DNA of 64,000 bases from Spirochaetaceae bacterium (GTDB lineage Bacteria > Spirochaetota > Spirochaetia > DSM-27196 > Alkalispirochaetaceae): assembly GCA_046540995.1 (NCBI GenBank), contig JBKHED010000005.1, positions 32,052 to 96,051 on the forward strand, given 5' to 3'. A program made the position numbers and the translations under genes. The notes below the pieces were generated by a model. It was given only the letters and a program-made list of their open reading frames with translations. It was not told where the DNA came from and ran no database searches. The first letter of the stretch is position 1. Every line of letters begins with the position of its first letter. Shown piece by piece: positions 26,273 through 50,096 of the stretch.

Positions 26273-26842
26273 ATGAGTCATCACCACCTACGTTGGAAGG
26301 AACGGCGACGAGAGCGGCTCTTGGACGCGGCGGTCTTTTCAGTGGACAAGAGCATTCAGGAGGGCCCCGAGGGGCGTTCGGCGGAGTACTTTCTCCTGAA
26401 CACCCCGGATTGGGGCAACGTGGTCGCCCTCACCACCGATGAGCAGGGGCGGGAGTGCTTCGTTATGGTCCGACAGTTCAGACACGGCAATATGAAGGTC
26501 TCCCTGGAGTTCCCCGGGGGCGTAATCGACCCTGGGGAGGATCCCAAGGAAGCCACCGCTCGCGAGCTTGCGGAGGAGACCGGCTATACTTCCGAGGAGT
26601 TCACCCTCATCGGGGAGATATACCCGAACCCCGCCTTTATGAACAACGTCTGCTACACCTACCTCGCTCGAGACCTTCGTCGCATACGGGACCAGAATCT
26701 CGATGAGAACGAGGTCATCGACGTGGAGCTCGTGCCGGTGGACTCCATTACCGTCGATCTACAGGGCTCCTTCTTTCACGCCATGATGGTGGTCGCCCTC
26801 CACTTCTATAACTGCTGGCGGGCGGATCACCCCACCCCCTGA
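26273..26842 (+). CDS. Nudix hydrolase (ADP-ribose pyrophosphatase-like)
   Basis: Nudix box GGVIDPGEDPKEATARELAEETGY. Confidence 0.85.
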   Translation: MSHHHLRWKERRRERLLDAAVFSVDKSIQEGPEGRSAEYFLLNTPDWGNVVALTTDEQGRECFVMVRQFRHGNMKVSLEFPGGVIDPGEDPKEATARELAEETGYTSEEFTLIGEIYPNPAFMNNVCYTYLARDLRRIRDQNLDENEVIDVELVPVDSITVDLQGSFFHAMMVVALHFYNCWRADHPTP

Positions 26843-26901
26843 GCAGAGAGGCGCCGACCGGAGGGCGCCACGCGCCCCCGGCTTGCAGATATGGCAAACG
26901 A

Positions 26902-26929
26902 AAACGGCCCACCGCTTGGTGGGCCGTTT
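26902..26929 (-). terminator. duplicated copy of the tRNA-Cys terminator hairpin (inside repeat copy 1)
   Basis: Stem AAACGGCCCACC / GGTGGGCCGTTT with a 4-nt loop. On the minus strand it is followed by TTTTCGTTT. Confidence 0.4.
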
Positions 26930-26996
26930 CTCAGTGAGCAGAGAGGCGCCGACCGGAGGGCGCCACGCGCCCCCGGCTTGCAGATATGGCAAACGA

Positions 26997-27024
26997 AAAC
27001 GGCCCACCGCTTGGTGGGCCGTTT
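26997..27024 (-). terminator. rho-independent terminator downstream of tRNA-Cys; possibly bidirectional for the Nudix gene
   Basis: 12-bp perfect stem and 4-nt loop. The T-rich tract on the minus strand lies 15 nt after the tRNA 3' end. Confidence 0.6.
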
Positions 27025-27038
27025 CTTAGTGAGCAGAG

Positions 27039-27111
27039 AGGCGCCGACCGGATTCGAACCGGTGAATGGAGGTTTTGCAGACCTCTCCCTTAGCCACTTG
27101 GGTACGGCGCC
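27039..27111 (-). tRNA. tRNA-Cys (anticodon GCA)
   Basis: Manual cloverleaf: acceptor GGCGCCG/CGGCGCC, anticodon stem GAGGT/ACCTC with loop CTGCAAA, T arm ACCGG-TTCGAAT-CCGGT, discriminator U. It is 73 nt and no CCA is encoded. Confidence 0.93.
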
Positions 27112-27191: not shown

Positions 27192-28961
27192 CTATTCCAG
27201 CCTGGCCGCAACGGCCCGACGAAACCGCTCTTCGAAGCTCCTGATTAGGGAGATCCCGGAGCGCCAGAACTCCGGCGACTCGAGGTCGAAGCCGGCGCTT
27301 CTGGCCACCTCCTGCGCGGAGGCGGCGCCGGTAAGCTTGAGGAGCTCCCGGTACCTTCTGGGAAACCCCTTCGGATCCTCCAGATACTGCGCGTAGAGTC
27401 CCAGGCCGAAGAGCTGGCCGAAGGCGTAGGGAAAGTTGTAGAACCCGAGCTCCGGACGGTAGTAGTGACCCTTTACCGCCCACATGTACGGATGGCGGAG
27501 GTCCCGGTCCATTCCATCACCGTAGGTGCGCTCCTGGGCGTCGAGCATAAGCTCCTTGAGGCGCCCCGGGGAGACGAAGCCGCTCTCCCGCTCCGCGAAG
27601 AGCGACTTTTCGAAGTAGAATCGCGAGAGGATGTCCACGATCACCTGGGTGCTCTCCTGCAGAAAGTGCTCGAGAATCGGGAGGGGATTGTCCCCCTCCT
27701 CTTCGACCCGGGTGTAGAAGATGTGAGTCTCGCAGAAGATCGACGCCGTCTCCGCCAGCGTCATCGGGTACTCCCTGAGGAGCGCCGGCTCCTCCTTGAT
27801 CACCTCGAAGTGGTAGGCGTGGCCGAGCTCGTGGGCGAGAGTGGAGACGGCGGAGAAGCTCCCGTCGAAGTTCGCGAGAATCCGGCTCTCTCCGAAAGCG
27901 GGCAGAGAAGTGCAGTACGCGCCTCCCACCTTGCCTTGCCGTGGTTGGCCGTCAATCCACTCCTCGGTAAACGCCTTCTCTGCCAGCGCCGCGAGATCAG
28001 AGGAGAATCGTCCGAAGCGGTCGAGGATGAACGCCTTCGCTTCGTCCCAGCTCCAGGATTTCTCCTCACCTCCAACGGGGGCGAAGAGATCGAAAAAGGC
28101 GACGCGTTCGAGGCCGAGGAGTTTCGCCTTCTCCCGCAGGTAGCTTCTGAATAGCGGCAGAGACTCCTCCATAACGCCAATCATCGCGTCCAGGCCTTTC
28201 CGACTCAGTCGAGACTGCATGACCGCCCGCTCGAGATCGCTCCGGTGACCCCGCCGCTTGTTGATTGTCGCGGCGAACCCCTTTACTCCGTTTAGGGCGT
28301 GAGCGAGGGGTGTTTCCATGCTCTTCCAGAGCTTCAGCTCTTCCTGATAAGCGCGTTCACGAACCGCCCGGTCACGGTCGAAGGCGAGGGCCCGGAGTTC
28401 GGTAACGCTCTTTCGCTCGCCCCTCTCCCGATCCCAAAGAGTGGAGAGCTCCGAGGAAACGGACTCCTGGAGACGACTCCAGAGCTCTCCACCGGACCTA
28501 TTGAGGTCCGCCCCGAGGTTTTCCTCTTCAACCCCCATCTGATACCCGGCGAAGGTGATCTCCTCCTCGAGGATTTCGGCGTACGCTTCGAGCTCACCAC
28601 CGGAGTGCCAGAGCTTCCTGAGGGAGTCGGCCTCTCTTGCCAGGCGGCTCCGCAGCCGCACGCGACCATCCCGTAGCCCGACCATGAGTTCGTTGAGCTG
28701 GTCCAGCTCCTTGAGGGCTTGGCTCTCACCTGTGTCGGTGGAGTAGGTAGCATATGCAAAGGATTCGAGGGTCTCGGCGAGGGTGGTTGCGTCGTTTAGT
28801 CGTTCCAACGCGCGTTGAAGCCACGCCCCCTGGGAATCCACCGCTTCTCGGAGAGCGGTGATCTCCTCTCCGAGTGTCGAGATGGCGTTCCGATACCCTT
28901 CGGAATCGAAGCCGCGGTAGATGGTATCAAGTCTCCACCGCGGAGCGCCGGCTGCTCTCAT
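27192..28961 (-). CDS. pepF: oligoendopeptidase F family (M3B) metallopeptidase
   Basis: HELGHAYH zinc motif and M3B length. The ATG at 28961 shares one nt with the ndk stop (TAATG). The longest ORF starts at a GTG at 28973. Confidence 0.88.
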   Translation of the reverse strand: MRAAGAPRWRLDTIYRGFDSEGYRNAISTLGEEITALREAVDSQGAWLQRALERLNDATTLAETLESFAYATYSTDTGESQALKELDQLNELMVGLRDGRVRLRSRLAREADSLRKLWHSGGELEAYAEILEEEITFAGYQMGVEEENLGADLNRSGGELWSRLQESVSSELSTLWDRERGERKSVTELRALAFDRDRAVRERAYQEELKLWKSMETPLAHALNGVKGFAATINKRRGHRSDLERAVMQSRLSRKGLDAMIGVMEESLPLFRSYLREKAKLLGLERVAFFDLFAPVGGEEKSWSWDEAKAFILDRFGRFSSDLAALAEKAFTEEWIDGQPRQGKVGGAYCTSLPAFGESRILANFDGSFSAVSTLAHELGHAYHFEVIKEEPALLREYPMTLAETASIFCETHIFYTRVEEEGDNPLPILEHFLQESTQVIVDILSRFYFEKSLFAERESGFVSPGRLKELMLDAQERTYGDGMDRDLRHPYMWAVKGHYYRPELGFYNFPYAFGQLFGLGLYAQYLEDPKGFPRRYRELLKLTGAASAQEVARSAGFDLESPEFWRSGISLIRSFEERFRRAVAARLE

Positions 28962-29422
28962 TAGATAAACCACTCCTCATTCGGGTCCGTCCACTCGAGG
29001 ATCTCGTCCTCTTCGAACCAGAGGGAGATCTCTCGCTCCGCGCTCTCGGGGCTGTCTGAGGCGTGGATGATATTCTTCGTGGTTGCCGCGGCGAAATCTC
29101 CACGGAGCGTTCCCGGAACGGCTTGGTCTACCTTGGTAGCCCCGCAGAGAAGGCGAAGCATCGGAATGGCGTCCTCCCCGGCAACCACCATCGCGAGCAC
29201 CGGCGAGGAGGAGACGTAGGAAACGAGGTCCTCGAAAAAGGGTTTGCCCTGGTGTTCGGCGTAGTGTTCCTGAAGCAGTTTCTCCGAGGCCCTCATGAGC
29301 TTCATGCCCACAATTCTGAGCCCCTTTCGTTCCATTCGTGTAATGAGTTCTCCGACGATTCGACGCTGCAGAGCACCGGGTTTGAGCATTGCAAAGCTCT
29401 TCTGATATGCCACGTATTGCAC
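28961..29422 (-). CDS. ndk: nucleoside diphosphate kinase
   Basis: FAMLKPGALQRR, active-site NIIHASDS, and about 150 aa. Confidence 0.9.
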   Translation of the reverse strand: MQYVAYQKSFAMLKPGALQRRIVGELITRMERKGLRIVGMKLMRASEKLLQEHYAEHQGKPFFEDLVSYVSSSPVLAMVVAGEDAIPMLRLLCGATKVDQAVPGTLRGDFAAATTKNIIHASDSPESAEREISLWFEEDEILEWTDPNEEWFI

Positions 29423-29479: not shown

Positions 29480-29959
29480 TTACTCAGGTTCGGCGAGCTG
29501 CTCCTCTAACTGATACGGATAGATGAGCTCGCCGGACCAGACCCTCTCTCCGTTTCTCTCCATCGAGAGAAGCGTTAGGGTCGAAAGAACCATGGGCTCC
29601 CTGGGCAGGAATGGGAAGGGTGAGTCAAACGTTACCTCGACAACTCCCGTCCGGGGATCCAGAGCCGTTACCCTCCTCGTCGCCTTCCGCTTCGTCGATA
29701 GCTTCTCGACCTCTTCCTCATCCCGTTCCGCGGTGGCCGGGGAGCTTTCGATTTCGAAACGGAGGGAGACCTTCTCCGGAAGCGGCGTCTCCCGCATCCG
29801 GAGGTGGAGCTCTACCCGGTGTCGCTCCTCGGGATAGAGTCGTTCGAAGCTCGCTCCCAGGAGAATGCAGGGGGGCGCTTCGGGAGGCGAAAGCAGCTCA
29901 CAGGAGGCGCTCAACGAGAGAAGGAGGAGAGAAAGAAGCTCACACCAGGGGACTCTCAC
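29480..29959 (-). CDS. lipoprotein, last gene of the secretion-system operon
   Basis: Signal plus lipobox LLLLSLSASC. The GTGA start overlaps the upstream stop. Confidence 0.5.
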   Translation of the reverse strand: MRVPWCELLSLLLLSLSASCELLSPPEAPPCILLGASFERLYPEERHRVELHLRMRETPLPEKVSLRFEIESSPATAERDEEEVEKLSTKRKATRRVTALDPRTGVVEVTFDSPFPFLPREPMVLSTLTLLSMERNGERVWSGELIYPYQLEEQLAEPE

Positions 29960-30516
29960 CGGAGCGTCCCTTCGACGGCGCGCAGGAGATCCTCACTTCT
30001 GCGTCGGCCGAGCTTTCCGGAGAGCGAGGCGAGCTCATCCCTCCACCCCTCCTCCGCGGTGGCGGCCCTCAGGAGGGCGTGCACCAGGGATCGCTCCTCC
30101 CGGCTCGCCTTCGCCGCTTCGAGAAGAGTCAGAAGCTCCGCGAGAGCGGCGGTGTTCTTCTCCAGAAACGCCTCGGCGCAGACCGGACCGAGGGGGCGAA
30201 GAGTGACGTAGAGAATCTGCGTAGCGTTGCGGAAGCTGAAACCGACCAGCTCCGGCGCGAATCCCGGAGCGGAGACGAGGAGTTCATACTCCCCCGCCCG
30301 CAGCCCCGGCACTACCAACCGTCCGAAAGAGTCCGTACCGCCGAGGCTTCTTCGCCCGTCGCGAATAGTACCGTTGGTCACCGGCTCGTGATCAGTCGAG
30401 TAGACCATGAGGAGGAGATCCCCCTCAACAAAGTGATCCGGTCCTCCGGCGCAACTCAGCGAAATGATCAGAACCGCCGCCGGAAGGACGACGATTGCTC
30501 TTCCGGCCACTCTCAT
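29956..30516 (-). CDS. lipoprotein with a carboxypeptidase-regulatory-like (prealbumin-fold) domain
   Basis: Lipobox IISLSCAG. The segment VTNGTIRDGRRSLGGTDSFGRLVVPGLRAGEYELLVSAPGF is typical of CarboxypepD_reg-like domains. ATGA coupling. Confidence 0.55.
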   Translation of the reverse strand: MRVAGRAIVVLPAAVLIISLSCAGGPDHFVEGDLLLMVYSTDHEPVTNGTIRDGRRSLGGTDSFGRLVVPGLRAGEYELLVSAPGFAPELVGFSFRNATQILYVTLRPLGPVCAEAFLEKNTAALAELLTLLEAAKASREERSLVHALLRAATAEEGWRDELASLSGKLGRRRSEDLLRAVEGTLR

Positions 30517-30875
30517 CGTCTGCGCACAAAGATCATCGCTTTGCCTCCCGCAAGCCGTAGATAGCCCACCTCTCGTCCCTCCCGGCGGGACGTTTTTGCA
30601 TCCCTCATCGGCTCATCAACACCCATCCCTGAGTCCGCCGCCTCGGTCCGCTCCGGTTCCGGCGTCGGGGAGGGAAAGAGCCGTTCCATGTCGGTCGCCT
30701 CCGGAACTGAGGGCAGTGAACCGGCTACTCGTGCCGTTTCGGAGGGCGCCTTCAGCGAAGGCGCCCGGGCCCCCCTGGGAGGATCGGAAACCGCCGACCA
30801 CCGGCGAGCCACGAAGAGAGCGAGGGAAGTGAGAACGAGAAGGAGAGAGAGAAGCCGCAGGAGACGCTCATTCAT
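30513..30875 (-). CDS. bitopic membrane protein (possible GspC/PilP analogue)
   Basis: MNERLLRLLSLLLVLTSLALF TM followed by a Pro/Glu-rich periplasmic part. The start lies 4 nt upstream of the previous stop. Confidence 0.45.
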   Translation of the reverse strand: MNERLLRLLSLLLVLTSLALFVARRWSAVSDPPRGARAPSLKAPSETARVAGSLPSVPEATDMERLFPSPTPEPERTEAADSGMGVDEPMRDAKTSRREGREVGYLRLAGGKAMIFVRRR

Positions 30876-31293
30876 CCCTGAACCGCACCGAGAGGCGATA
30901 CCGTCCATCCTCGCGATGGAGGTGGAAACTGAGCAGTTCTCGAGCTGCCGCCAGCGCGTAGAGTGCAAGCACGAGCTCCGCCGGCTCTCCCCAGCTCTCC
31001 ACGGCTACCGAGGTTTCTCCTCCCGCTGAGGTACTCCGATAGGTTGCTCCATCGACTCCGCCAAAGGCGGCTCGTAGCGCCGCTGGTCCTTCCCACTCGC
31101 AGCGGCGTTCCGTTTCTTCCGGGAGCTCCTCCCTACGCCCCGCCGCTTCCGAGCCCGGCGCCTCATCGCCGCCTTCGGAGGGAACCTTCGGTGGGGTGAG
31201 GAGCAGGGCGGCCGAGAGCAGGGCAGCCGCCGAGAGAATGAGGAGCACCCAGCCCAGGAGCGTAGCCGCTCCCTGTGAAGCTTCTTTCTTCAT
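30868..31293 (-). CDS. bitopic membrane protein (possible GspM/PilO analogue)
   Basis: One TM (LLGWVLLILSAAALLSAALLL) plus a roughly 90-aa periplasmic domain. ATGA coupling. Confidence 0.45.
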   Translation of the reverse strand: MKKEASQGAATLLGWVLLILSAAALLSAALLLTPPKVPSEGGDEAPGSEAAGRREELPEETERRCEWEGPAALRAAFGGVDGATYRSTSAGGETSVAVESWGEPAELVLALYALAAARELLSFHLHREDGRYRLSVRFRDE

Positions 31294-32213
31294 TGCAGTT
31301 CTATAGTACAGAGAATGGTTCCTGCCGCTTCAGCTAAGAGCCAGTTGGAGCTCCGGATCTCCAACATCGCCGACTGATACCGCTTTTCCAGTAGTGTCTT
31401 AACTCCATCGACGTCGGTTACCCGCAGCGACAGGCGCAGCGCATCGCTACTTCCCTCGATCACCTCGACGGTAACCTCCCCGGGCGCTCGGAAGAGGAGG
31501 GTAAGAAGCTCGGTGAGCTCCGGCAGAGCACGGCTTGCCTCGGTCGGTGCGAGCGCCGGTTCCGGGACCGGCGGCTCAGGGCGCTCCGTAGAGGAGGGTT
31601 GCGATCGCATGGCCGCCGGTGTGGTGAGAAGCAGAAGCAGTGCCGAAAGGAGAGCCAAACCCGCATAGAGGTTGAAGGAGCCGTGCCGAGGCTTCCGCAC
31701 GGAGAGCAGCAGAACCGGGAGGAGCCGGAGGTGGCAGAGCAGCAGGAGCAGCAGCCTCAGCGGCCGACGTCGAGCGAGAGCTAGAAGCGCGGTGGCCCGC
31801 AGAACCCGCGGGCGAGACGCGTGAGGATCCTCGTCCGGTACGACGGCCGCTCCCGGAAGGGGCTCCCGATGCGTGCCCCACTCCACCTGAACCGGCCGAT
31901 TACCGCGGCGGAGGAGGAGGGCGAAGAGAAGGGGGTGGAGAAAGATCCGGCCCTTACCGGGGGCGCTCTCCGAGCTTCCGGACGGTGGAGCCTGCTCCGC
32001 GGCGGCCGCCGGCGCTTCGGGGCGGAGAATGAGGTATGGAGTCCGGTGAAGCGGATCGCCCGGTAGGGAGCGATACGCCCTGCGGACCGTGCACCCCTGG
32101 AGCCGGAAGGGGACTCGCTGCCGCAGATACTCGCTCTCTCCCTTCGGTCGTACTCCCCTGGGCAGCAGGAGGAGGGTCGCCGCCTCCGGGGCGAGAAGCC
32201 TCAGCTCATTCAT
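31290..32213 (-). CDS. membrane protein with a cytoplasmic N-domain, central TM and periplasmic alpha/beta domain (possible GspL/PilMN analogue)
   Basis: Assigned from architecture and operon position only. No confident motif. Confidence 0.45.
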   Translation of the reverse strand: MNELRLLAPEAATLLLLPRGVRPKGESEYLRQRVPFRLQGCTVRRAYRSLPGDPLHRTPYLILRPEAPAAAAEQAPPSGSSESAPGKGRIFLHPLLFALLLRRGNRPVQVEWGTHREPLPGAAVVPDEDPHASRPRVLRATALLALARRRPLRLLLLLLCHLRLLPVLLLSVRKPRHGSFNLYAGLALLSALLLLLTTPAAMRSQPSSTERPEPPVPEPALAPTEASRALPELTELLTLLFRAPGEVTVEVIEGSSDALRLSLRVTDVDGVKTLLEKRYQSAMLEIRSSNWLLAEAAGTILCTIELQ

Positions 32214-32370
32214 CGAGAGGCTCCAGACGTGATTCGATCCGCTCCATTAGTAGCTCCGCGGCGGTGATGCCGCGGAGGAGCGAGCCGATTTGCAGGCTCA
32301 GAACGGTCAACGCCGCAACCGTCAGGATGAGTGCGGCGGTTACGAATCCTCCCGATGAGTTACCGCTCAC
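32206..32370 (-). CDS. unlisted 54-aa ORF, possible minor pseudopilin-like peptide
   Basis: My translation is VSGNSSGGFVTAALILTVAALTVLSLQIGSLLRGITAAELLMERIESRLEPLDE. The GTGA start overlaps the upstream stop, and its own stop overlaps the next ATG. Confidence 0.35.
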   Translation of the reverse strand: MSGNSSGGFVTAALILTVAALTVLSLQIGSLLRGITAAELLMERIESRLEPLDE

Positions 32371-32795
32371 CGCGACTCCTTCCGGGGGACCCTCAGGTAG
32401 AAGGTTATCCGCGCTCTCCCCGCTCGGCCCGGCGGGAACGGAACCAGCAGAGTGACCTCATACCGTTCATCCGTGAGCCGCCTGAGTCGCAGATCCGCAC
32501 CCCCCGGCACCCTCCGGCTGCCCCTAAACTCGAGCGCCTCTTCGGTGAGCGCGGCAAGCTGCCCGACCGCTCGGAGCAGTCGGAGACTCTCCTCGAGCCG
32601 GCCGGCGCTCTGCCTCAGCTCGGCCATCAGGGAAGCCACCGGTAGAAACAGCTCGCCGGCTGCAAGAATCGCAACCGACAGGAGGAGTCCTCCCAGAGGG
32701 GAGAGAAACCCGTGATTATCGGGGAATCTCAAGAGTCCTTCCCTGGAGCTCCGTGAGAAACTCCTCCACGCCGATAAGACGTGAGCGAGCCTCAC
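32367..32795 (-). CDS. hypothetical membrane protein, possible non-canonical pseudopilin (start uncertain)
   Basis: NHGFLSPLGGLLLSVAILAAGE resembles a prepilin N-terminus without Glu+5. An alternative TTG start lies near 32732. Confidence 0.45.
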   Translation of the reverse strand: MRLAHVLSAWRSFSRSSREGLLRFPDNHGFLSPLGGLLLSVAILAAGELFLPVASLMAELRQSAGRLEESLRLLRAVGQLAALTEEALEFRGSRRVPGGADLRLRRLTDERYEVTLLVPFPPGRAGRARITFYLRVPRKESR

Positions 32796-32874
32796 TCAGG
32801 GCGGTTGAAATCCGAATCGCCGCCCCGTGTAAGATGAGCAGCAGCAGCAGGAGCAACGCCGCCCTCGGTATCAT
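32716..32874 (-). CDS. unlisted 52-aa ORF with an N-terminal hydrophobic helix
   Basis: My translation is MIPRAALLLLLLLILHGAAIRISTALSEARSRLIGVEEFLTELQGRTLEIPR. The ATGA start overlaps the gspG stop. It conflicts with the 5' end of the 32367-32795 ORF. Confidence 0.3.
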   Translation of the reverse strand: MIPRAALLLLLLLILHGAAIRISTALSEARSRLIGVEEFLTELQGRTLEIPR

Positions 32875-33302
32875 CGGGGAGCCTCGTAGAGGTACACGCT
32901 CTCTTCCTCCCCGGGAGGGCCCAGGGAGTAGAGCTCGTACGGAAGTCCGTCTCGCTCCCTCCTTCGATAGACGTAGGGTCGCCCCCAGGGGTCCTCGCTG
33001 GCCGGACCGTTGAGGTAGGGGCCGTTCCAGCTCTCCGGGACGGGATGAAGATAGGGCGGCTCATAGAGGGCGATCAGACCCTGCTCGGTTGTGGGATACT
33101 CCCCGCAGTCGAAGGCGTAGGAGTCGAGGGCCACGGCGAGGGCCGTGAGCTCCCCCTTGGCGGCGGCGCGACGGGCGTCGTCGATATATCGGTACGCCGC
33201 GACCCCGGTTGTGCTCGAGAGAACGAGGATAATCCCGACGGTGATAACCGTTTCGACGAAGGTCCAGCCGCCGTCGTCACTCAGGACTCGTAGAATATTC
33301 AT
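32871..33302 (-). CDS. gspG: GspG-type major pseudopilin
   Basis: Prepilin signal ...SDDGG/WTFVETVITVGIILVLS (Glu+5) and a GspG-like C-terminus DPWGRPYVY...YELYSLGPPG. SD GAAGGAG lies upstream. Confidence 0.85.
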   Translation of the reverse strand: MNILRVLSDDGGWTFVETVITVGIILVLSSTTGVAAYRYIDDARRAAAKGELTALAVALDSYAFDCGEYPTTEQGLIALYEPPYLHPVPESWNGPYLNGPASEDPWGRPYVYRRRERDGLPYELYSLGPPGEEESVYLYEAPR

Positions 33303-33350
33303 AACGCGCTCCTTCTATGAGAAGAGGTAGCCCGAAAGGGAGCTGCTGCT

Positions 33351-34376
33351 TCAGCCAAGAAGCATAAAACCTTCCATGAGCGGAATTACGACCAGGAGTC
33401 CCGCCAGAAGTAGGAGCACGCCGACGAGGAAAAGGGCGACTGTCGGAAGGAGCTGAGCTGCTCGCTCCTCCCGGCGCTTCTCGCAAAGCTCACCGTGGCG
33501 AATGAGAGCGTTCAGGAGGGCCGCCGCGGCGCTCCGTTCAGGATGGGTCTCGATGAGTCGAAGGTCCTCTCTGGTCAGTGGCGGTAGCAGGTATTCGAGA
33601 GCGAAGGAGAGGGAGCGCCCTTCTTCCAGACGCCCTTCCGCCGCTTCCAAGGGCGCCCAGTGGAGTCCCCGGGAGGCGAGGGACTTTCGCAGCGTACGAA
33701 GCGAAGCCGCCAGGGAGGGAGAAAGAAGCAGCGATTCCCGGAACAGGAGGAGGAACTCCATTCTGCCGGGGAGCTCCCGCTTTCGGGTGGAGATGAACAC
33801 CCCCAGGGGCAACGCGGCGGATAAGAGGACGCCGGAGAGGATGTGAAGCGGGATCAGATGCGCGGGAAGGGGCGGTCCTTCCCCGGGGAGAGCAAGGGCG
33901 CCGGAGAAGAGCGAGAACTGCAGGGCGGCTAGAGCAGCGGAGAGAAAGAGCGATAGGAGTACCGGGTAGACTATTCCCTGAAGCAGGTTCTCTCTCCGCC
34001 GTCGGAAGCTTCTCCCTTCGGAGGCGGTAGTGCGCAATGCTTCAACCGTTCCTCTCGCCTCGAGCCGGAGCTCGAAGAGGGCGAGCTCCCGAGCCTTCCA
34101 CCCCCTCTCCTCGAGAACAGTCAGGACCTGCTCTTCCGACCTCGCTGAGAAGGCGCCATGGAGCTTGCCGAACCGGCGGCGCGGCCGCTCCTCCGGGATC
34201 GCTTTGAGCCCCGACTCCTCGACGTCCGCGAGTTCCTCCAGGAGCTCGGGAATGGAGCGGCTAGGCAAAGCGATACCCCCGGGCCGCCGCCTCCCGTCGG
34301 TAGCTTCCGAACGTGCGGTACCGGTTGCGACTGAGGTAGCGGCGCCACCACGCCCCGGTGAGCTCGTTTCCATCAA
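33351..34376 (-). CDS. gspF: divergent GspF/PilC-type platform protein (true start probably the TTG near 34268)
   Basis: Three hydrophobic helices separated by helical cytoplasmic domains. It sits between the ATPase and the pseudopilin. The long form would overlap gspE by 116 nt. Confidence 0.65.
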   Translation of the reverse strand: MMETSSPGRGGAATSVATGTARSEATDGRRRPGGIALPSRSIPELLEELADVEESGLKAIPEERPRRRFGKLHGAFSARSEEQVLTVLEERGWKARELALFELRLEARGTVEALRTTASEGRSFRRRRENLLQGIVYPVLLSLFLSAALAALQFSLFSGALALPGEGPPLPAHLIPLHILSGVLLSAALPLGVFISTRKRELPGRMEFLLLFRESLLLSPSLAASLRTLRKSLASRGLHWAPLEAAEGRLEEGRSLSFALEYLLPPLTREDLRLIETHPERSAAAALLNALIRHGELCEKRREERAAQLLPTVALFLVGVLLLLAGLLVVIPLMEGFMLLG

Positions 34377-35526
34377 AGGGTGCGCTCGCCAGGTTGACGA
34401 TCTCGAAGAGCACTACCCGCCTCGGGAGCTCTCCCCCCGGCGGTACCGCCGAGACCAGCCGCTGGCTTATCACCCCTCCTAGGGCGTGCTCCAGAGCGCA
34501 GGGGTCCGCCTCGAGCTCGAGGAGCCGTTCCACCGCCCCCGCCGCGGAGGGTGCGTGGAGGGTGGTTAGAACGAGATGCCCCGTGAGAGCCGCTTCGATC
34601 GCATACCGGGTGGTCTCGGGACTGCGAACTTCTCCCAGGACGATAATGTCCGGGTCCTGCCGCAAGGCGGCTTCCAGCAGCACCCGCCCCTCCGTCACCT
34701 TTCGCAGATTCAGCTGGAGAAAACGCTCCTCTTCCTGTTCCACCGGGTCCTCGATTGTGACGACCCGCCTCCCCCGGTCGGCCTCGGGCCGCAGCATGGC
34801 GTGGAGGGTGGTGCTCTTTCCGGAACCGGTGGGGCCGCAGAGGAGTATCAATCCGTCATCGCGAGAAGCGAGAAAGGCGAGTTCCTCTCGAGCTTCCGGG
34901 AGGAGGGCGATCTCATCGAGGGAGAGGCGCTTTTCACTGGGTGGGAAGAGGCGGAGGGCAACGGAAAGGTTCTCCCGCCGCCGCCTCAGGAGCGAGAGGC
35001 GTGCGTCGTAGGTACCCGCGGCTCCCTGGAAGCTGAAGCTTCCCTCCTGAGCCGCTTCGCCGGAGTAGGGGTCGAGGTCGGCGAGAGAGAGAAGCCGCCG
35101 AATCACCGCGGTTCCCAGGGGCTCGGCGAAACGCAAGTGCTCCTCCAATCGTCCCTCCCGTCGAAGGGCCGTCATCAGGGATCCTTCCATGAGACGAAGG
35201 TGGAGATCCGAAGCCCCGAGGGCCGCTGCCTCGCCGAGGAGACCGTTTACCACCACCACCGCCGGCGCCTCCGGGGAGGCGAGCTCCTCCGCCCCGGCGG
35301 GGCCTTCGGATTCGGGCTTCCGGGGACCGGAGAGCATTCGAGCGTGCTGCGCGAGAAACTCCTCCCGGCTGATACGCTTTACCGCTACCGGGGCACCAAA
35401 GGCGGCCCGTAGGCGAAGCCGCTCCTCCTCGGGAAGCTCCTCGGTTGCTCCGAGGAGGACCTGGTGGGAACCGCGTTGCAAAACGACCACCCCCCAGTGG
35501 AGGGAGTACGCCCGGCTCAGCTCCAT
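34261..35526 (-). CDS. gspE: GspE/PilB-family secretion ATPase
   Basis: Walker A CGPTGSGKSTT, VTIEDPVE, Walker B DPDIIVLGEVRSPET, His box TGHLVLTTLHA. TAATG junction with the upstream gene. Confidence 0.9.
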   Translation of the reverse strand: MELSRAYSLHWGVVVLQRGSHQVLLGATEELPEEERLRLRAAFGAPVAVKRISREEFLAQHARMLSGPRKPESEGPAGAEELASPEAPAVVVVNGLLGEAAALGASDLHLRLMEGSLMTALRREGRLEEHLRFAEPLGTAVIRRLLSLADLDPYSGEAAQEGSFSFQGAAGTYDARLSLLRRRRENLSVALRLFPPSEKRLSLDEIALLPEAREELAFLASRDDGLILLCGPTGSGKSTTLHAMLRPEADRGRRVVTIEDPVEQEEERFLQLNLRKVTEGRVLLEAALRQDPDIIVLGEVRSPETTRYAIEAALTGHLVLTTLHAPSAAGAVERLLELEADPCALEHALGGVISQRLVSAVPPGGELPRRVVLFEIVNLASAPFDGNELTGAWWRRYLSRNRYRTFGSYRREAAARGYRFA

Positions 35527-38240
35527 TATCGTGCCCCTCTCTCTCCGAGGGATTCGACCAGCTCCTCCACCGTGGCGGCGAATCCCACGGTTTCGCTGCG
35601 CTCGATGTGGGGAACCAGGTAGATTACCAGCTCCGTTACCTCCTCGTCCTTCCTCCCCGGGCGAAGGAGTTCCTTGAAGAGGGGAATGCGGTGGAGAAGG
35701 GGAAGGGGGCGTCGCTCTTCCTCCCTCTCCCGCTGGAGAAGACCCGCAAGAATGATCGGCTCCCCCGCTTCGGTCCGCACCGTTGTCTCTACCCGCTTCT
35801 CCGAGGTCGGGGGAGGGTCGTCGCCCTCGGCGAGCTCTACGCCCTGCTTCGAGTACTCCGCGGTTATTCTCATGCGCACCTGCTCCTGCTCCACCACCTC
35901 TCCGAGGACCCTGAGGCGAATGCCCGAGGTAATCTCCCTGGTCACCCCGGTGGGCAGAATCTTCGCCTCTTCCTCGTTGTAGGCGAGATCCCGGTAGCGG
36001 AACGTTTGGGTGTTGGTGAAGGCGACCTCCGTGCCGTCCAAGCCGTAGAGTGTCGTATCAGCGAGGAGGCGCGCGGACTGTTCCGAGAGTCCCCGACTTA
36101 TGGTTGCCGCGAGACGATGGCCTAGGAGGGCGATGGCGTCGAAGCGGAGGGTGAGAAGCTGATCGAACATGCCACTAAGGGCGACCGCCCCGCCTCGGGC
36201 CCTGTCGTCCAGCTCGCCGGCCAGGTCATAGGAGGAACCCTCCCGGTGCTGCCGCTGGAGAATGAGAAGGTCGTAGCGAATCTGTCTGGCCGGTCGGTCA
36301 ATCGTGAGGAGCAGCTCCCGGAGAGTGGCGATCTCTCCCTCTTTGCCCCAGGCGACCAGCCCTCGGCCACCGGGGGCGCTCCGGAGGCTCGGCATGCCCG
36401 CTTCACCACCGAAACGCTCCACGAACTCTTCACCACGGAGCGCGGTCAGGCGGAAAAAGCGAGTGCTCTCTTCCCGGTCGAAGAGTGCGACGAACTCTCT
36501 CAGCTCCGAGAGCGCCCTTTCCGGCAGCGCTGCGAGAATGGCCGAGTCGTCCGGGGTGGAGCTCATATGAAACCCCTCGAAGCGGCTCGGCAGGGCGAGA
36601 AGGAGCTCCGAGGCGGAGGTATGCCGGAGCTCCAGGAGCTCAAAGGGTGTGCCTTCGAGCTCTCGTCGGTCCACCGCGGAGAGGAGGGTTGCCGCCCGCG
36701 CAACCTCAGCGGGCGCTCCGGAAAGTAGGACACGGTTGCGTCCCGGATCCGGAAGCGCCCGTAGCCGTCCGGAGAGCTCCGGGCCGAGTAGCGTGAGCAA
36801 GGGTGAAGGGGCCCAGTGGTGAAGCGGAACCGATAGCTCCAACGGATGCGCCCCGGCACCGGTGGTCGGAACTATCTCGGTGTATCCGGAGCGCTCTCGC
36901 GCCACAGCCTTCACGGAGTCGAGGAGGACGGCAAGGATTTCCTCGAAGGTACGGTCCCGGAGAACCAGCTCCTCCACCGGTAGCTCCTCCCTGGGCGAGT
37001 AGAGGTAACTCCGGCTCTCCGCCGCGAAGAGACGATCGAGAACCTCCCGAAGGGAGGTTTGGTGGACAAAGAGGGAGTACCGACCCTCATCCTCCGCCCG
37101 CAGCTCCACAGCGGAGCCGTGCCGCCGGTGGGCGGCGAAGGAGGAGCGCTCCGCCGGGAGCTCCGAGAACCCCCCGGGCCGCTGGTCGGAAGAGGCGAGG
37201 AGTATGTGCGTCCTCCTCGATTCCACTCGGAGCCTCGGCTCTTCCGCCAGCAGCGCCGTTAGCAGCTCCTCCAACGGCATGGGGCCGCCATGAAAGCTCA
37301 CGGCGCGATCCTGTAGATCTACGGCACGAATCGGCGTGTTCGCCACGTGAGAGAGCCGTTGGAGCACCGTGGCGAGGGGCGCCTCCACGGCGTCGAGGCT
37401 GTACGACTCCTCCCCAACTTTCCGGACCCGGATCCTGGAGACCAGGGTGACCCCGTTTCCCCGGGGCAGAAGATAGAGATCGAAGGCGTCACAGAACGCT
37501 TCCAGGGCCCCCTGAAGCGGTATGGAGGAGAAGAAGTAGGAGGCTCTGCCGCTCACCGTCTGATCCGGGATTATCGTTCTTTCCGTGGCGGCGGCGAGGA
37601 GCAGGAGAATCTCCCGAATCGGCTGATCCCGAAACTCCATTTCCACGATCTGCGGCTCCTCGGCGGAGGCGGAGGTTTCGGAATCGGAGGTTTGGGAGCC
37701 GGGGGATTCCGGAAAGAGCTCCAACGCCGGGAGAAGGAGCATGCTGAGGCCGAACATGAGCACCGCTGCCTCCCGCAGCGCCTCCCGGAAGGAGGCGAAC
37801 CCGCGGAGCGCCGAGGCGGCAACGAGAAACGGAGCGAAGGGATAGCGTCGCGGTACCCCGGGGAGCTCCTCACCACGCCGGAGCCGGTTCACGAGGAGCA
37901 ACAGGAGCGCGGAGAGAACCAGGGCGTCGCACCAGCCGGGGCCGCCGAGATAGGCGGCGAGCATGAGGGAGAGGGCGAGGTCGCCGCCTCCGACAGCGTG
38001 GGGCATGGTGAGGCGGAAAGGTCCGAGGGCGAACAGGGGCCAGAGGAGCGCCGGGAGTTGCGAACCCCGGGGACCAATCAGAAGAAGGGCGACAAGACCG
38101 CCCAAGGAGATCCAGTGCGGTACTCGCAGCGTTCTCTGATCCCAGAACGCCGCCAAGAGGCCGAAGAGGAGAAACAGCAGGGCACGAAACAGTGGAAGCA
38201 TTATTGAGAAGAGACAGCGGCCGCGACGTTCCCGCTTCAA
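35526..38240 (-). CDS. in-frame fusion of an A24-type prepilin peptidase core (aa ~1-160) with a PilQ/GspD-type secretin (aa ~200-904)
   Basis: The peptidase part has WDQRTLRVP and GGGDLAL in a polytopic hydrophobic N-terminus. The secretin part has an N0-like IVEMEFRDQPIREILLLLAAATERTIIPDQ and a C-terminal secretin domain (ITSGIRLRVLGEVV...VRTEAGEPIILAGLL...HRIPLFKELL). Confidence 0.8.
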   Translation of the reverse strand: MKRERRGRCLFSIMLPLFRALLFLLFGLLAAFWDQRTLRVPHWISLGGLVALLLIGPRGSQLPALLWPLFALGPFRLTMPHAVGGGDLALSLMLAAYLGGPGWCDALVLSALLLLLVNRLRRGEELPGVPRRYPFAPFLVAASALRGFASFREALREAAVLMFGLSMLLLPALELFPESPGSQTSDSETSASAEEPQIVEMEFRDQPIREILLLLAAATERTIIPDQTVSGRASYFFSSIPLQGALEAFCDAFDLYLLPRGNGVTLVSRIRVRKVGEESYSLDAVEAPLATVLQRLSHVANTPIRAVDLQDRAVSFHGGPMPLEELLTALLAEEPRLRVESRRTHILLASSDQRPGGFSELPAERSSFAAHRRHGSAVELRAEDEGRYSLFVHQTSLREVLDRLFAAESRSYLYSPREELPVEELVLRDRTFEEILAVLLDSVKAVARERSGYTEIVPTTGAGAHPLELSVPLHHWAPSPLLTLLGPELSGRLRALPDPGRNRVLLSGAPAEVARAATLLSAVDRRELEGTPFELLELRHTSASELLLALPSRFEGFHMSSTPDDSAILAALPERALSELREFVALFDREESTRFFRLTALRGEEFVERFGGEAGMPSLRSAPGGRGLVAWGKEGEIATLRELLLTIDRPARQIRYDLLILQRQHREGSSYDLAGELDDRARGGAVALSGMFDQLLTLRFDAIALLGHRLAATISRGLSEQSARLLADTTLYGLDGTEVAFTNTQTFRYRDLAYNEEEAKILPTGVTREITSGIRLRVLGEVVEQEQVRMRITAEYSKQGVELAEGDDPPPTSEKRVETTVRTEAGEPIILAGLLQREREEERRPLPLLHRIPLFKELLRPGRKDEEVTELVIYLVPHIERSETVGFAATVEELVESLGERGAR

Positions 38241-48539: not shown

Positions 48540-49495
48540 TACGAGAACGGAGACGACGAGTAAGCACGCTCTTTCTGGCTCTGCTCTTCCTCGCGGCGGT
48601 CCTGCAGGGAGAGGAAATCGGCCGGGTGGCGGCTCTGGCGGATTCAGTCTCGATTGTCCGGGCCGGGGAGCCGATTCCGGGGGCCGTGGAGGGTGGAACG
48701 GCTCTGAAGGCGGAGGACCTGCTCCTAACCGGAGAGGGTTACGGAGAGGTGATTCTCGACGGCCTCGGAAGGCTCCGGCTCTGGCCGGAAACGGTCGTCC
48801 ATCTGCGCGGAAGCGTGGAAATCGAGTTGCTCACGGGGACGGTACAGTTTCGACGGCTCGGCGGAAGCGGCCCGGTACCGATTCTCTCGGGAGCGGTCAC
48901 GGTCCGGATACGATCCGGAGAGGCGACGGTGAGTGCAGGCGCCGGCGACCTCCGTCTCGTCCTATCGGAGTCGGGGCGCCAGCCGGTACTGAGTGAGACC
49001 GGGGTGCGCCGTTTTGCGGAGCCCGGCCGGCCGGTGGGGTTCTACCGGCGCCTCTCGAACATCGAGGGCGCCCCGCTGGAGTGGAGGGAAGCCGCCCTCA
49101 AGACCTTCGCCACCCGGGGTCCTGGGGAGATGGCCGATCGCTTTCAAGAGTACCGGGAGCTCCGGGAACGATTCGATACGGCCTATGAGGAACTTCTCCG
49201 TTATCGAAGCACGCTGAACCGTTGGAGAAGCGAGTTCCGACGTGGCCTCGACCCGAAGGTGGAAGAGACCCTAACCGGAGAACCTGAGCTCTCCGCTGCT
49301 CTGGATGGGGTGCTCGGGGTGAGTGAGGAGATGGAGAGGCGCTACTATCAACTCCGTCTCGACGCCCCTTACCTTCGAGAGGAGTTCCGGGAGTATTTGC
49401 GGCAGGAGGATGCGTACCTAACCGATCGGCTCCATTTCGTTCGCTTTCTGCGCGCCCTTCTGCCCGCCGGCGCGCTCGACCAGGAGAGTGCTTAG
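48536..49495 (+). CDS. secreted FecR-domain-like protein
   Basis: Signal peptide RRRRVSTLFLALLFLAAVLQG. FecR-like VSIVRAGEPIPGAVEGGTALKAEDLLLTGEGYGEVILDGLGRLRLWPETVV. ATGA coupling. Confidence 0.55.
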   Translation: MIRERRRRVSTLFLALLFLAAVLQGEEIGRVAALADSVSIVRAGEPIPGAVEGGTALKAEDLLLTGEGYGEVILDGLGRLRLWPETVVHLRGSVEIELLTGTVQFRRLGGSGPVPILSGAVTVRIRSGEATVSAGAGDLRLVLSESGRQPVLSETGVRRFAEPGRPVGFYRRLSNIEGAPLEWREAALKTFATRGPGEMADRFQEYRELRERFDTAYEELLRYRSTLNRWRSEFRRGLDPKVEETLTGEPELSAALDGVLGVSEEMERRYYQLRLDAPYLREEFREYLRQEDAYLTDRLHFVRFLRALLPAGALDQESA

Positions 49496-50082
49496 AAGAG
49501 GGTGACCTCTCCGCGCTTTTTCTTGTTCCGCTCTTCCCGGAGCTTCTTGAGGTACTCCGTTTCTTCCTCTTCCACCTCATGGACCGTGGTGGTGGCGGTA
49601 ATTCTCTTGAGGAGAACCTTTGCGGTGGTGGGGTAGAAAAAGAGCTTTCGCGCCTGGATTCCTCCGACGTCCGATGCGCTGATCGGTATACCTTCGGTCT
49701 TGAGAAACTCCATGGCAAACTCTACGTTGCTCCGGGGTACATTGCCGGCGGTGGAAGCATGGAGGACGTGGCCCCCGCCGAAGACCTTGGCGACCATCCT
49801 CTGTTTACTTCCGCCGAGCTTGAATAGCTCGTTTATGAGAACCTCCATGGCGTAGAGGCCATACTTGGCGCTCTCCTGGTTAAATCCTCGGTGCGCCTCC
49901 AGGGAGCCGGGAAGCATAAAGTGGTTCAGGCCGCCTACCTTGGCGTTGTCGTCATAGAGCGCTACTGCCACGCAGGAACCGAGGATGGTCGAAATGATCG
50001 TCTCTTCCCCGGTGGCGTAGTACTCACCGGGATGGATAATGATCACATCAGACTGGAACTTGCTGTTGAAATGCCGGTACAT
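49492..50082 (-). CDS. cheD: chemoreceptor glutamine deamidase CheD with a ~35-aa C-terminal extension
   Basis: LGSCVAVALYD, GGLNHFMLP, KVFGGGHV. The tail ends ...KKKRGEVTLF. Confidence 0.85.
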   Translation of the reverse strand: MYRHFNSKFQSDVIIIHPGEYYATGEETIISTILGSCVAVALYDDNAKVGGLNHFMLPGSLEAHRGFNQESAKYGLYAMEVLINELFKLGGSKQRMVAKVFGGGHVLHASTAGNVPRSNVEFAMEFLKTEGIPISASDVGGIQARKLFFYPTTAKVLLKRITATTTVHEVEEEETEYLKKLREERNKKKRGEVTLF

Positions 50083-50096
50083 TCAGTTTACTTTTC

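Follow-up and report, generated by a model that had tools for sequence, protein, structure and literature searches.

What kind of machine is encoded by a compact run of minus-strand genes, more than half of which match no known protein family? The question is raised by a locus within 64,000 nucleotides of Spirochaetaceae bacterium DNA (assembly GCA_046540995.1, contig JBKHED010000005.1, positions 32,052 to 96,051), the whole of which is called the window here and provides all coordinates. The listing of open reading frames (ORFs) and an analysis of the gene junctions resolved 12 co-directional genes, named A to L, which form an unbroken ORF chain from 38201 to 29480 on the minus strand and occupy 8.7 kb. 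With a probability of roughly 0.6, these genes encode a lineage-specific, streamlined type II secretion-type machine, in which a pseudopilus piston would work under a secretin pore. The original prediction had left the function open, which it is not entirely. A type II secretion system (T2SS) is favoured over type IVa pilus (T4aP), competence (Com) and Tad systems because the major pilin, the ATPase, the secretin, a GspL-like fold and the gene order agree, and protein secretion is the likeliest function. Given the counter-signals, which are the ComGA and ComGB scores of the ATPase and platform proteins, an ATPase lacking the Cys4 motif and a secretin that scores alike for PilQ and GspD, the machine is called 'T2SS-type' and not a certified T2SS.

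The 12 genes are one conserved, tightly coupled operon. Overlaps of 1 to 17 nt are present at 10 of the 11 junctions, and the sole spacer is one of 48 nt between C and D. From A to L the distances are -1 (TAATG), -8, +48, -4 (ATGA), -17, -4 (GTGA), -8 (ATGAATGA), -4, -8, -4 and -4 nt. The same operon, with the same chromosomal neighbours, was found in at least nine independent assemblies, all of them metagenome-assembled genomes (MAGs) or contigs of Spirochaetaceae/Alkalispirochaetaceae. The relatives compared were L001 and L002, which are GTDB-representative MAGs, L010, which is an NCBI assembly, and L003 to L008, which are six Logan contigs from different sequencing runs. The gene chain is complete in L001, L002, L004, L006, L008 and L010 and partial in L003, L005 and L007, and both the gene order and the overlapping junctions are identical across them; the arrangement is not due to chance. 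Comparison with these relatives was used to refine the start sites. The 12 to 13 translationally coupled genes originally predicted, with mostly ATGA, GTGA and TAATG overlaps, are therefore borne out in their coupling and in its retention among relatives, but there is no 13th gene; the operon has 12, including three tiny ORFs (E, F and G). The order of secretin, E, F, G, small pilin-like, L-like and M-like genes is that of gspD-E-F-G-H-I-J-K-L-M in E. coli, where the gspC-O operon of strain K-12 was the reference for a classical T2SS.

Standard models cover these genes poorly, as had been anticipated. Neither Pfam nor NCBIfam has a match at E <= 0.1 for seven of them (E, F, G, H, I, J and L), and D alone attains a curated equivalog cut-off. 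The description of a compact, highly divergent T2SS/type IV filament operon also stands, the ATPase orthologues being an isolated group. Ten clusters contain orthologues of the gene B ATPase at 53% identity or more, match scores drop from 396 to 199 bits outside the clade, and the next matches, with 35-43% identity over part of the protein, are a mix of PilB, GspE and tandem PilT proteins.

Gene A, a prepilin peptidase-secretin fusion

Gene A (35526-38201, minus strand; 891 aa) starts with the Met at 38201 that is used by all relatives; the maximal ORF is open to 38240 and is 13 codons longer. A single polypeptide runs from a short A24 membrane domain through a linker and N0-like modules to three Secretin_N domains and, last, a secretin pore domain, with Pfam scores of 82 bits for Secretin, 46 for Secretin_N and 21.7 for Peptidase_A24. 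Domain comparisons show a C-terminal GspD-like secretin and an N-terminal A24 peptidase domain in which both catalytic Asp residues are intact. A secretin fusion had been predicted, and the secretin is indeed fused, but its partner had gone unrecognised; Pfam, the invariant Asp motifs and a profile search identify it as an A24 prepilin peptidase. Of all that is unusual about the locus, this fusion stands first.

The A24 (GxGD aspartyl protease) domain is located at 37713..38201 on the minus strand. Approximately 135 N-terminal residues of A align with stand-alone A24 peptidases and E. coli GspO, and the motifs D21...IP, GGGD74 and PFAPF122-126 (numbered from Met-38201) are invariant in the clade members, the stand-alone A24 peptidases and GspO. 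The domain is of the short type, lacking an N-terminal methyltransferase region and aligning to residues ~70-225 only of GspO. The window copy is below the Pfam cut-off of 26.5 bits, and the orthologue P0131 is above it at 27.4 bits. In an exhaustive search of 1.84 billion cluster representatives, a profile of the A24 domain matched 123 proteins. Stand-alone proteins of 110-392 aa account for 121 of these (all but one are <=266 aa), and only two are long, at 885 and 878 aa, both of which are from this clade and carry a secretin. The nine top-ranked stand-alone matches were checked and all nine exceed the Pfam A24 cut-off. P0132, the nearest stand-alone A24 protein, is on a 2.4-kb contig where it adjoins miaA and rpoZ, and this context is uninformative. 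When a profile was made from the A24 domain, stand-alone A24 peptidases and E. coli GspO, the top match in the PDB was FlaK (3s0x, E = 0.0017). The N-terminal domain of A is assigned as an A24 peptidase because its nearest relatives are bona fide A24 proteins and P0131 passes the cut-off.

A single ORF of 874-897 aa is found for gene A in six relatives (52-99% identity), and the fusion is also present in L002, L008 and L010. The 99% identical protein comes from an NCBI 'Spirochaetaceae bacterium' MAG and five more are at 52-75%, with the more distant relatives carrying the label Alkalispirochaetaceae. The fusion is considered real because clade members sampled independently all have it and its catalytic motifs are invariant. 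It is catalytically plausible and, within the databases searched, appears confined to this lineage. A genome scan made to find relatives in an unfused or intermediate state yielded only L001 and L002, both members of the clade. No report of a peptidase-secretin fusion, or of a T2SS in Alkalispirochaeta, was found in the literature searched, which does not prove that none exists.

At 36855..37661 on the minus strand there are three N0-like periplasmic modules in tandem. The first has a weak match to type_II_gspD_N0 (E = 0.01, 16 bits), and modules 1-2 and 2-3 are in register by hhalign (P = 4e-4 and 6e-4), which is weak evidence. The three Secretin_N domains, which are N1-N3-like, follow at 35604..36845, also on the minus strand, together with the secretin pore at the C-terminus. 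Pfam places Secretin_N in three stretches within residues 465-720 and the Secretin domain at residues 719-879, both above their cut-offs. Against the PDB, the nine best matches of the secretin part are GspD structures, at 58-45 bits, with PilQ at 41 bits or less and RcpA at 28.

Between the A24 core and the first N0-like module, the window copy has an extra hydrophobic segment (A residues 142-160, window positions 37722-37778) and an acidic linker. It may be, although the odds are put slightly below even, that A is one polypeptide in both membranes, with a peptidase ring around the assembly site, in which pilin maturation, envelope scaffolding (the role of GspC/GspB) and the pore are merged. 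On the same tentative reading all other parts would be miniature ones, 'pilins' of 50 aa being reduced to a bare helix, and the whole might be a natural minimal T2SS with a covalently tethered secretin. Two points tell against a two-membrane arrangement. The extra hydrophobic segment is present in the window, L001, L003-L005 and L008 and missing from L002 (positions 10040-10600 of that locus were compared) and L010, where the first N0-like module begins ~10 residues past the last A24 helix. In addition, A could be cleaved after membrane insertion, whereby the tether would be lost.

The remaining components and the machine they suggest

Gene B (34261-35526, minus strand; 421 aa) encodes an assembly ATPase of GspE/ComGA-like type, with 196 bits for T2SSE (PF00437) and intact Walker motifs. 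In NCBIfam it scores 200.9 bits for ComGA, 198.3 for GspE (TIGR02533), 154 for PilB and 143 for PilT, all under the respective cut-offs, and on the TadA-family model it reaches 43.6 bits (E = 2e-11) against a cut-off of 373. Comparison with the PDB separates these families more clearly, as EpsE/GspE structures score 169-170 bits, PilB/PilF 129-134 and PilT 97; solved GspE structures are thus ahead of PilB by ~36 bits and of PilT by ~73 bits. B is read from these matches as a GspE-like ATPase.

Gene C (33351-~34268, minus strand) has an uncertain start and encodes ~270-305 aa that appear to be a shortened GspF-like inner-membrane platform. It scores 20 bits for T2SSF (PF00482; E = 7e-4), below the cut-off of 25.2, with one of the two T2SSF repeats detected, and its relatives carry 'faint' PF00482 matches. 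Three hydrophobic spans are seen in its hydropathy profile, and hhalign links it to E. coli GspF with P = 0.0012. Its only NCBIfam match is ComGB (E = 0.007, 15.7 bits, cut-off 240), and a PDB profile search with C found nothing significant.

The clearest member of the set is gene D (32871-33302, minus strand; 143 aa), the major pseudopilin. D scores 91 bits for GspG (TIGR01710), exceeding the cut-off of 88.85, and 87 bits for T2SSG (PF08334), and it is 35% identical to E. coli K-12 GspG (E = 6e-17). It is the only canonical prepilin in the operon, with the motif DDGG/WTFVE (the slash marking the cleavage site) invariant in 8 loci, and is by these matches a GspG-type prepseudopilin. The +1 residue of mature D is an invariant Trp (33264-33266; DDGG/WTFVET) in all loci, where the usual residue is Phe or Met. 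This Trp co-occurs with a peptidase that has no N-methyltransferase region.

Genes E, F and G sit where GspH/I/J/K stand in the T2SS order. E (32716-32874, minus strand; 52 aa), which is conserved in 9 loci and is a called gene in each, combines an N-terminal membrane helix with an amphipathic one and has no conserved Gly before the helix. The pilin-like F (32367-32732, minus strand) is a protein of 121 aa, not the 142 aa of the maximal ORF, and has a short charged leader, an invariant Gly and a hydrophobic helix (DNHG/FLSPL; pattern D-x-x-G/x-L-x-P-L). G (32206-32370, minus strand; 54 aa) is a mini pilin-like protein with an invariant Gly followed by F, Y or V (SSGG/FVTAA) and a mature part of ~45 aa that is essentially one helix in the nine-locus alignment. 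Glu+5 is missing from all three, in keeping with the claim that D is the single canonical prepilin. None of the three has a Pfam or NCBIfam family match or a Flp motif; F has no match in the PDB, and its hhalign probability with E. coli GspI is 0.9%. F and G may be peptidase substrates that form a minimal pseudopilus tip.

Three membrane proteins follow, all on the minus strand, for which the roles of GspL, GspM and GspC had been proposed. H (31290-32213; 307 aa) starts with a small conserved (cytoplasmic) domain, continues with one hydrophobic span or two, and ends in a domain of ~85 aa. Its sequence has no match in Pfam, NCBIfam or a PDB profile search, or to E. coli GspL (hhalign probability <=1%). 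The profile search yielded four orthologues only, and the AlphaFold2 model was consequently built on a shallow five-sequence alignment, with the cytoplasmic half unmodelled. Residues ~228-307 have an alpha-beta-beta-alpha-beta-beta topology, and the AlphaFold and Foldseek comparison suggested for such proteins led from this domain to GspL. The top PDB matches are GspL periplasmic domains, namely XcpY (5n7l and 6ghu, template modelling (TM) scores by target of 0.61-0.64), PulL (5hl8 and 8a9w, 0.62-0.74) and EpsL (2w7v, 0.66), followed by PilO and EpsM. Because the matches agree across three T2SSs, despite weak E-values, the best reading of H is as an assembly-platform protein of GspL-like type whose cytoplasmic domain is reduced.

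The other two fared less well, in that neither resembles GspM or GspC in sequence. I (30868-31293; 141 aa) is bitopic with a small periplasmic alpha/beta domain and is a positional analogue of GspM, by position and hydropathy only. J (30513-30875; 120 aa) is bitopic; its linker is rich in Pro, and a beta-hairpin-like motif (G.EVGRI.LAGG.AMIFVRRR) is conserved at its C-terminus. Two further links were tried and rejected. The periplasmic domains of H and I, considered as paralogues in the manner of GspL/M or PilN/O, showed no similarity, and hhalign of H, I, J and F with E. coli GspL, M, C and I gave probabilities of <=1% throughout.

The last two genes encode the two lipoproteins that had been predicted, each with a signal peptide and an invariant Cys (Cys22 in K, Cys20 in L). 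K (29956-30516, minus strand; 186 aa) has a sub-threshold CarboxypepD_reg match of 21 bits, in agreement with the domain that had been noted, and a confident AlphaFold2 model (mean predicted local distance difference test (pLDDT) score 86.5, predicted TM score 0.77) consisting of a seven-stranded, transthyretin-like beta-sandwich and a helical bundle. A PDB profile search with K found nothing significant, and Foldseek matched the model to the transthyretin-like domains of carboxypeptidase D/N and the NTE domain of SusC. K was also considered as an analogue of PilP or the GspC HR domain, and this was rejected, as the confident model matches transthyretin-like domains and no PilP or HR entry is in its top 50. 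L (29480-29959, minus strand; 159 aa) has the conserved motifs D.PF.FLP and W.GEL.YPY and no match in Pfam, NCBIfam or the PDB. It is possible that K or L is pilotin-like or supports the secretin.

Several of the results weigh against a T2SS-type machine. In NCBIfam, B, C and the secretin fall far short of the equivalog cut-offs for GspE, GspF and GspD; the score of B for ComGA (cut-off 300) exceeds that for GspE (cut-off 630) by 2.6 bits, and A scores 67.8 bits for PilQ and 65.9 for GspD (TIGR02517), where the GspD cut-off is 351. The tetracysteine (Cys4) motif typical of GspE and PilB is missing from B, which has two isolated Cys only. No GspH, I, J or K is detectable by sequence in the operon, and no globular protein of GspK or GspJ size is encoded. 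The model of H is poor overall, with a mean pLDDT of 44.5 and values of 70-80 only over residues ~228-307, and its Foldseek matches to GspL, at a probability of 1.00, have E-values of 0.009-0.055 only. For I, no sequence similarity was found to E. coli GspM, PDB entries, the C-terminal domain of H, or any Pfam or NCBIfam family. J matches E. coli GspC with a probability of 0.1%, and no GspC (HR domain) is detectable in the operon. A GspS-type pilotin was likewise not detectable there; the absence of pilotin and of GspK/I/J-like minor pseudopilins had been noted before.

Some of these signals are shared with a competence-type, ComG-like pseudopilus with a secretin, the short filament of which would pull DNA through the secretin for ComEA/ComEC-mediated import. 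This is the alternative that survives best, and it is considered unlikely. ComGA is the best NCBIfam match of B and ComGB is the sole match of C, and ComGA, like B, is short and is not known to carry the Cys4 motif. The order of ATPase, platform, major pilin and small pilin-like genes resembles that of comGA-GG in B. subtilis, in which an ATPase, a platform and a major pilin are followed by several small pilin-like genes. However, the ComGA and ComGB scores are both far under their cut-offs. D is a GspG equivalog and not ComGC, and no match to ComGC or to ComGD-GG was found in NCBIfam. The C-terminal domain of H has a predicted GspL fold, among solved structures the ATPase and the secretin are matched best by GspE and GspD, and ComG operons are not known to carry L- or M-like genes. 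No comEA, comEC or dprA is evident among the ORFs of the window, which were mostly inspected by eye, and in the remainder of the window no further filament or competence genes were noticed when the translations were viewed.

Slightly less probable again is a true surface filament of D, acting as a type IV pilus-like adhesin or motility organelle. Membership of the type IV filament superfamily and the small lead of PilQ over GspD in the NCBIfam scores of the secretin are what would be expected of it. Set against this, the window has no PilT/PilU-type second ATPase; it contains no second T2SSE-type ATPase at all, consistent with the lack of a PilT-like retraction ATPase noted before, and no paralogue of any operon gene. 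Nor are there PilM/N/O/P, AMIN or Flp signatures, and the operon proteins have no PilM/N/O/P or AMIN matches in Pfam or NCBIfam. D is of the small GspG type, above the GspG cut-off, and PilB and PilQ structures score under those of GspE and GspD.

In the favoured T2SS-type machine, the A24 domain of A would lie in the inner membrane and cleave the leader of D at Gly/Trp, and probably also F and G at their invariant Gly. A hexamer of B on the platform C and the small cytoplasmic domain of H would drive the insertion of D into a short periplasmic pseudopilus, for which the miniaturised F and G, and perhaps E, would provide the tip in place of GspH/I/J/K. H and I would make up a periplasmic L/M-like collar. 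The C-terminal half of A would form the secretin ring, through which the pseudopilus would then expel folded substrates from the periplasm. Through the putative covalent link to the inner-membrane domain, every pore subunit would be tethered, by only ~10 residues in the lineage of L002. Such a tether might replace the non-covalent HR-N0 contacts of GspC/GspB and put the peptidase ring around the assembly site. K, L and the hairpin-tailed J would be accessory, with possible pilotin-like, secretin-supporting or substrate-handling roles.

Conservation and chromosomal setting

Secretin identity across the assemblies that bear the operon ranges from 43% to 99%. Between the window and L001, the ratio of nonsynonymous to synonymous substitution rates (dN/dS, Nei-Gojobori) is 0.10-0.57 over all 12 genes; these estimates are rough as dS is 0.8-1.6. 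It is below 1 for every gene in all three pairs compared (window-L001, L004-L006 and L004-L005). Against L001 the values are 0.31 for E, 0.26 for F, 0.17 for G and 0.28 for L, and the fastest-evolving gene is J at 0.57. The frames of the operon, tiny ORFs included, are under purifying selection. It had been asked whether the small ORFs might be untranslated. E, F and G are conserved, have dN/dS below 1 and were predicted by independent gene callers in every relative, which answers the point at the level of sequence. It is very improbable that the locus is a decaying, non-functional T2SS remnant, with its missing parts and perhaps the fusion due to gene loss and accidental read-through, since, even with several canonical components undetectable, C, H and the minor pilin-like genes strongly reduced, and I and J evolving fast (dN/dS 0.5-0.57), the 12 frames, the overlaps and the fusion are kept across lineages down to 43% secretin identity, no gene has a dN/dS as high as 1 in any of the three pairs, and the catalytic and Walker motifs are intact.

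The flanks of the operon are conserved as well, with divergent NAPRTase-DjlA-galactokinase genes upstream and ndk-pepF downstream. The operon is a vertically inherited chromosomal locus and not a mobile island, as judged by the conservation of gene order and flanks across the clade. Its G+C content is 64-66% (30001-38000), against 59-62% in the adjoining 2-kb bins; recent horizontal acquisition is disfavoured despite this because of the synteny of the flanks across the clade. The system is seen by sequence comparison as a narrow, divergent branch of one lineage. A scan of Joint Genome Institute metagenomes with a GspG profile found 80 ordinary GspG loci, the best at 48% identity, and none with relatives of C, E-L or the A24 domain. 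The host lineage consists of uncultured spirochaetes of salt- or soda-lake type that are known from MAGs and assembled reads only.

The ndk and pepF (M3 oligoendopeptidase) genes, at 27192-29422, are on the same strand as the operon and separated from it by a 57-nt spacer. They overlap each other by 13 nt, an arrangement kept in every complete locus. Co-transcription with the secretion genes is possible, although by eye the two genes have no signal peptides and look like housekeeping neighbours. A promoter and terminator scan found no sigma-70-like promoter, and terminator-like sites did not exceed the expected number. Long plus-strand ORFs of 200-317 aa are present opposite the operon genes, at 29611-30564, 34358-35412, 37347-38207 and elsewhere. 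These are taken to be non-coding shadows, typical of high-G+C DNA, because purifying selection and synteny track the minus-strand frames.

Beyond pepF and ndk there is a tandem repeat at 26840-27052, with a 95-nt unit present 2.2 times at 99-100% identity; within each unit a T-run comes after a GC-rich hairpin. The third copy is incomplete and overlaps the 3' end of a tRNA-Cys gene (27038-27111, minus strand). The repeat might have arisen as an att-like duplication or by duplication of a terminator, or it might be an assembly artefact. By eye, the remainder of the window is ordinary chromosome, with genes for DNA polymerase I, coaE, a glycogen phosphorylase-like protein, homoserine dehydrogenase, galactokinase, cheD, a chemoreceptor and ATP-binding cassette transporters (49492-51872 being among the regions viewed).

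Comparison with known secretion and filament systems

With the classical T2SS (Gsp/Eps/Pul/Xcp) the operon shares the order of a secretin, a GspE-type ATPase, a GspF-type platform, the major pseudopilin GspG and pilin-like genes, followed by L-like and M-like bitopic proteins. Both have an A24 peptidase in the operon, a single locus and no retraction ATPase. The classical peptidase is a separate GspO, whereas here it is at the N-terminus of the secretin and without the methyltransferase region. In place of GspH/I/J/K there are proteins of 52, 121 and 54 aa. The cytoplasmic domain of GspL shrinks from ~240 aa to ~70-130 aa, and GspF of ~400 aa to a GspF-like protein of ~300 aa. The ATPase has no Cys4 motif, and GspC (HR/PDZ) and the GspS-type pilotin have no counterpart, two unrelated lipoproteins being present instead. 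The +1 residue of the pseudopilin also differs, being Trp here.

Leptospira, from the same phylum, has a secretin-based T2SS encoded by a conventional multi-gene Gsp cluster. Outside the present clade, no relative came closer than ~35-43% ATPase identity. T2SS in spirochaetes is known through the Leptospira GspD secretin (PMC7941034), and in Denise et al. 2019 T2SS in Spirochaetes appears only via citation of earlier work (PMC6668835). The latter also covers 'generic' or atypical type IV filament systems, including the reduced chlamydial T2SS, which have no recognisable minor pilins or GspL/M and are outside the specific models (Denise et al. 2019, PMC6668835). The present system probably falls outside specific models likewise, but it differs from these in the peptidase-secretin fusion and in keeping L/M analogues by position, of which one has a predicted GspL-type fold.

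For the anchoring of the secretin there is a precedent in GspB/OutB of Dickeya, where a separate HR-domain protein anchors the secretin to the inner membrane through HR-N0 contacts (PMC9239104). GspB/OutB and GspC make non-covalent contact as separate proteins, whereas here there is a putative covalent link to a polytopic enzyme domain, and no HR domain is detectable in the operon.

The nearest sequence relatives of the A24 domain are the short A24 peptidases, TadV/CpaA/FppA and archaeal FlaK, which have in common with it a length of ~150 aa, the lack of a methyltransferase domain and the D...GxGD...PFxPF motifs. Among the database matches, however, all 121 from outside the clade stand alone, in contrast to the two clade representatives (878 and 885 aa) with a secretin. 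Likeness to the Tad/Flp pilus is confined to this short TadV-type peptidase, as the TadA score is 43.6 bits against 373, RcpA scores 28 bits and there is no Flp motif. The T4aP differs in its PilT, which is undetected in the window, and in its PilM/N/O/P and AMIN components, which are undetected in the operon proteins, and PilB structures score under GspE.

From this operon it can be seen how far a machine of T2SS type can shrink and rewire under purifying selection. It may be of use in defining the minimal set of T2SS components and in improving models of the TXSScan type, which would probably file the system as 'generic'. The fusion makes two questions testable, those of where prepilins are processed relative to the assembly platform and of what couples the secretin and the inner membrane. 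The usual example of a protein in two membranes is VirB10 of type IV secretion systems, and A, if it stays intact, would join the very few proteins that are embedded in both. At 12 genes and 8.7 kb, the system is a compact target for structural work and heterologous reconstitution, and its experimental impact depends on heterologous expression because the lineage is uncultured. The machine on which it is a variation is well understood. T2SSs, atypical 'generic' ones among them, and the presence of a T2SS in spirochaetes are already known; what is unusual here is the fusion of peptidase and secretin together with the extreme reduction of the accessory components.

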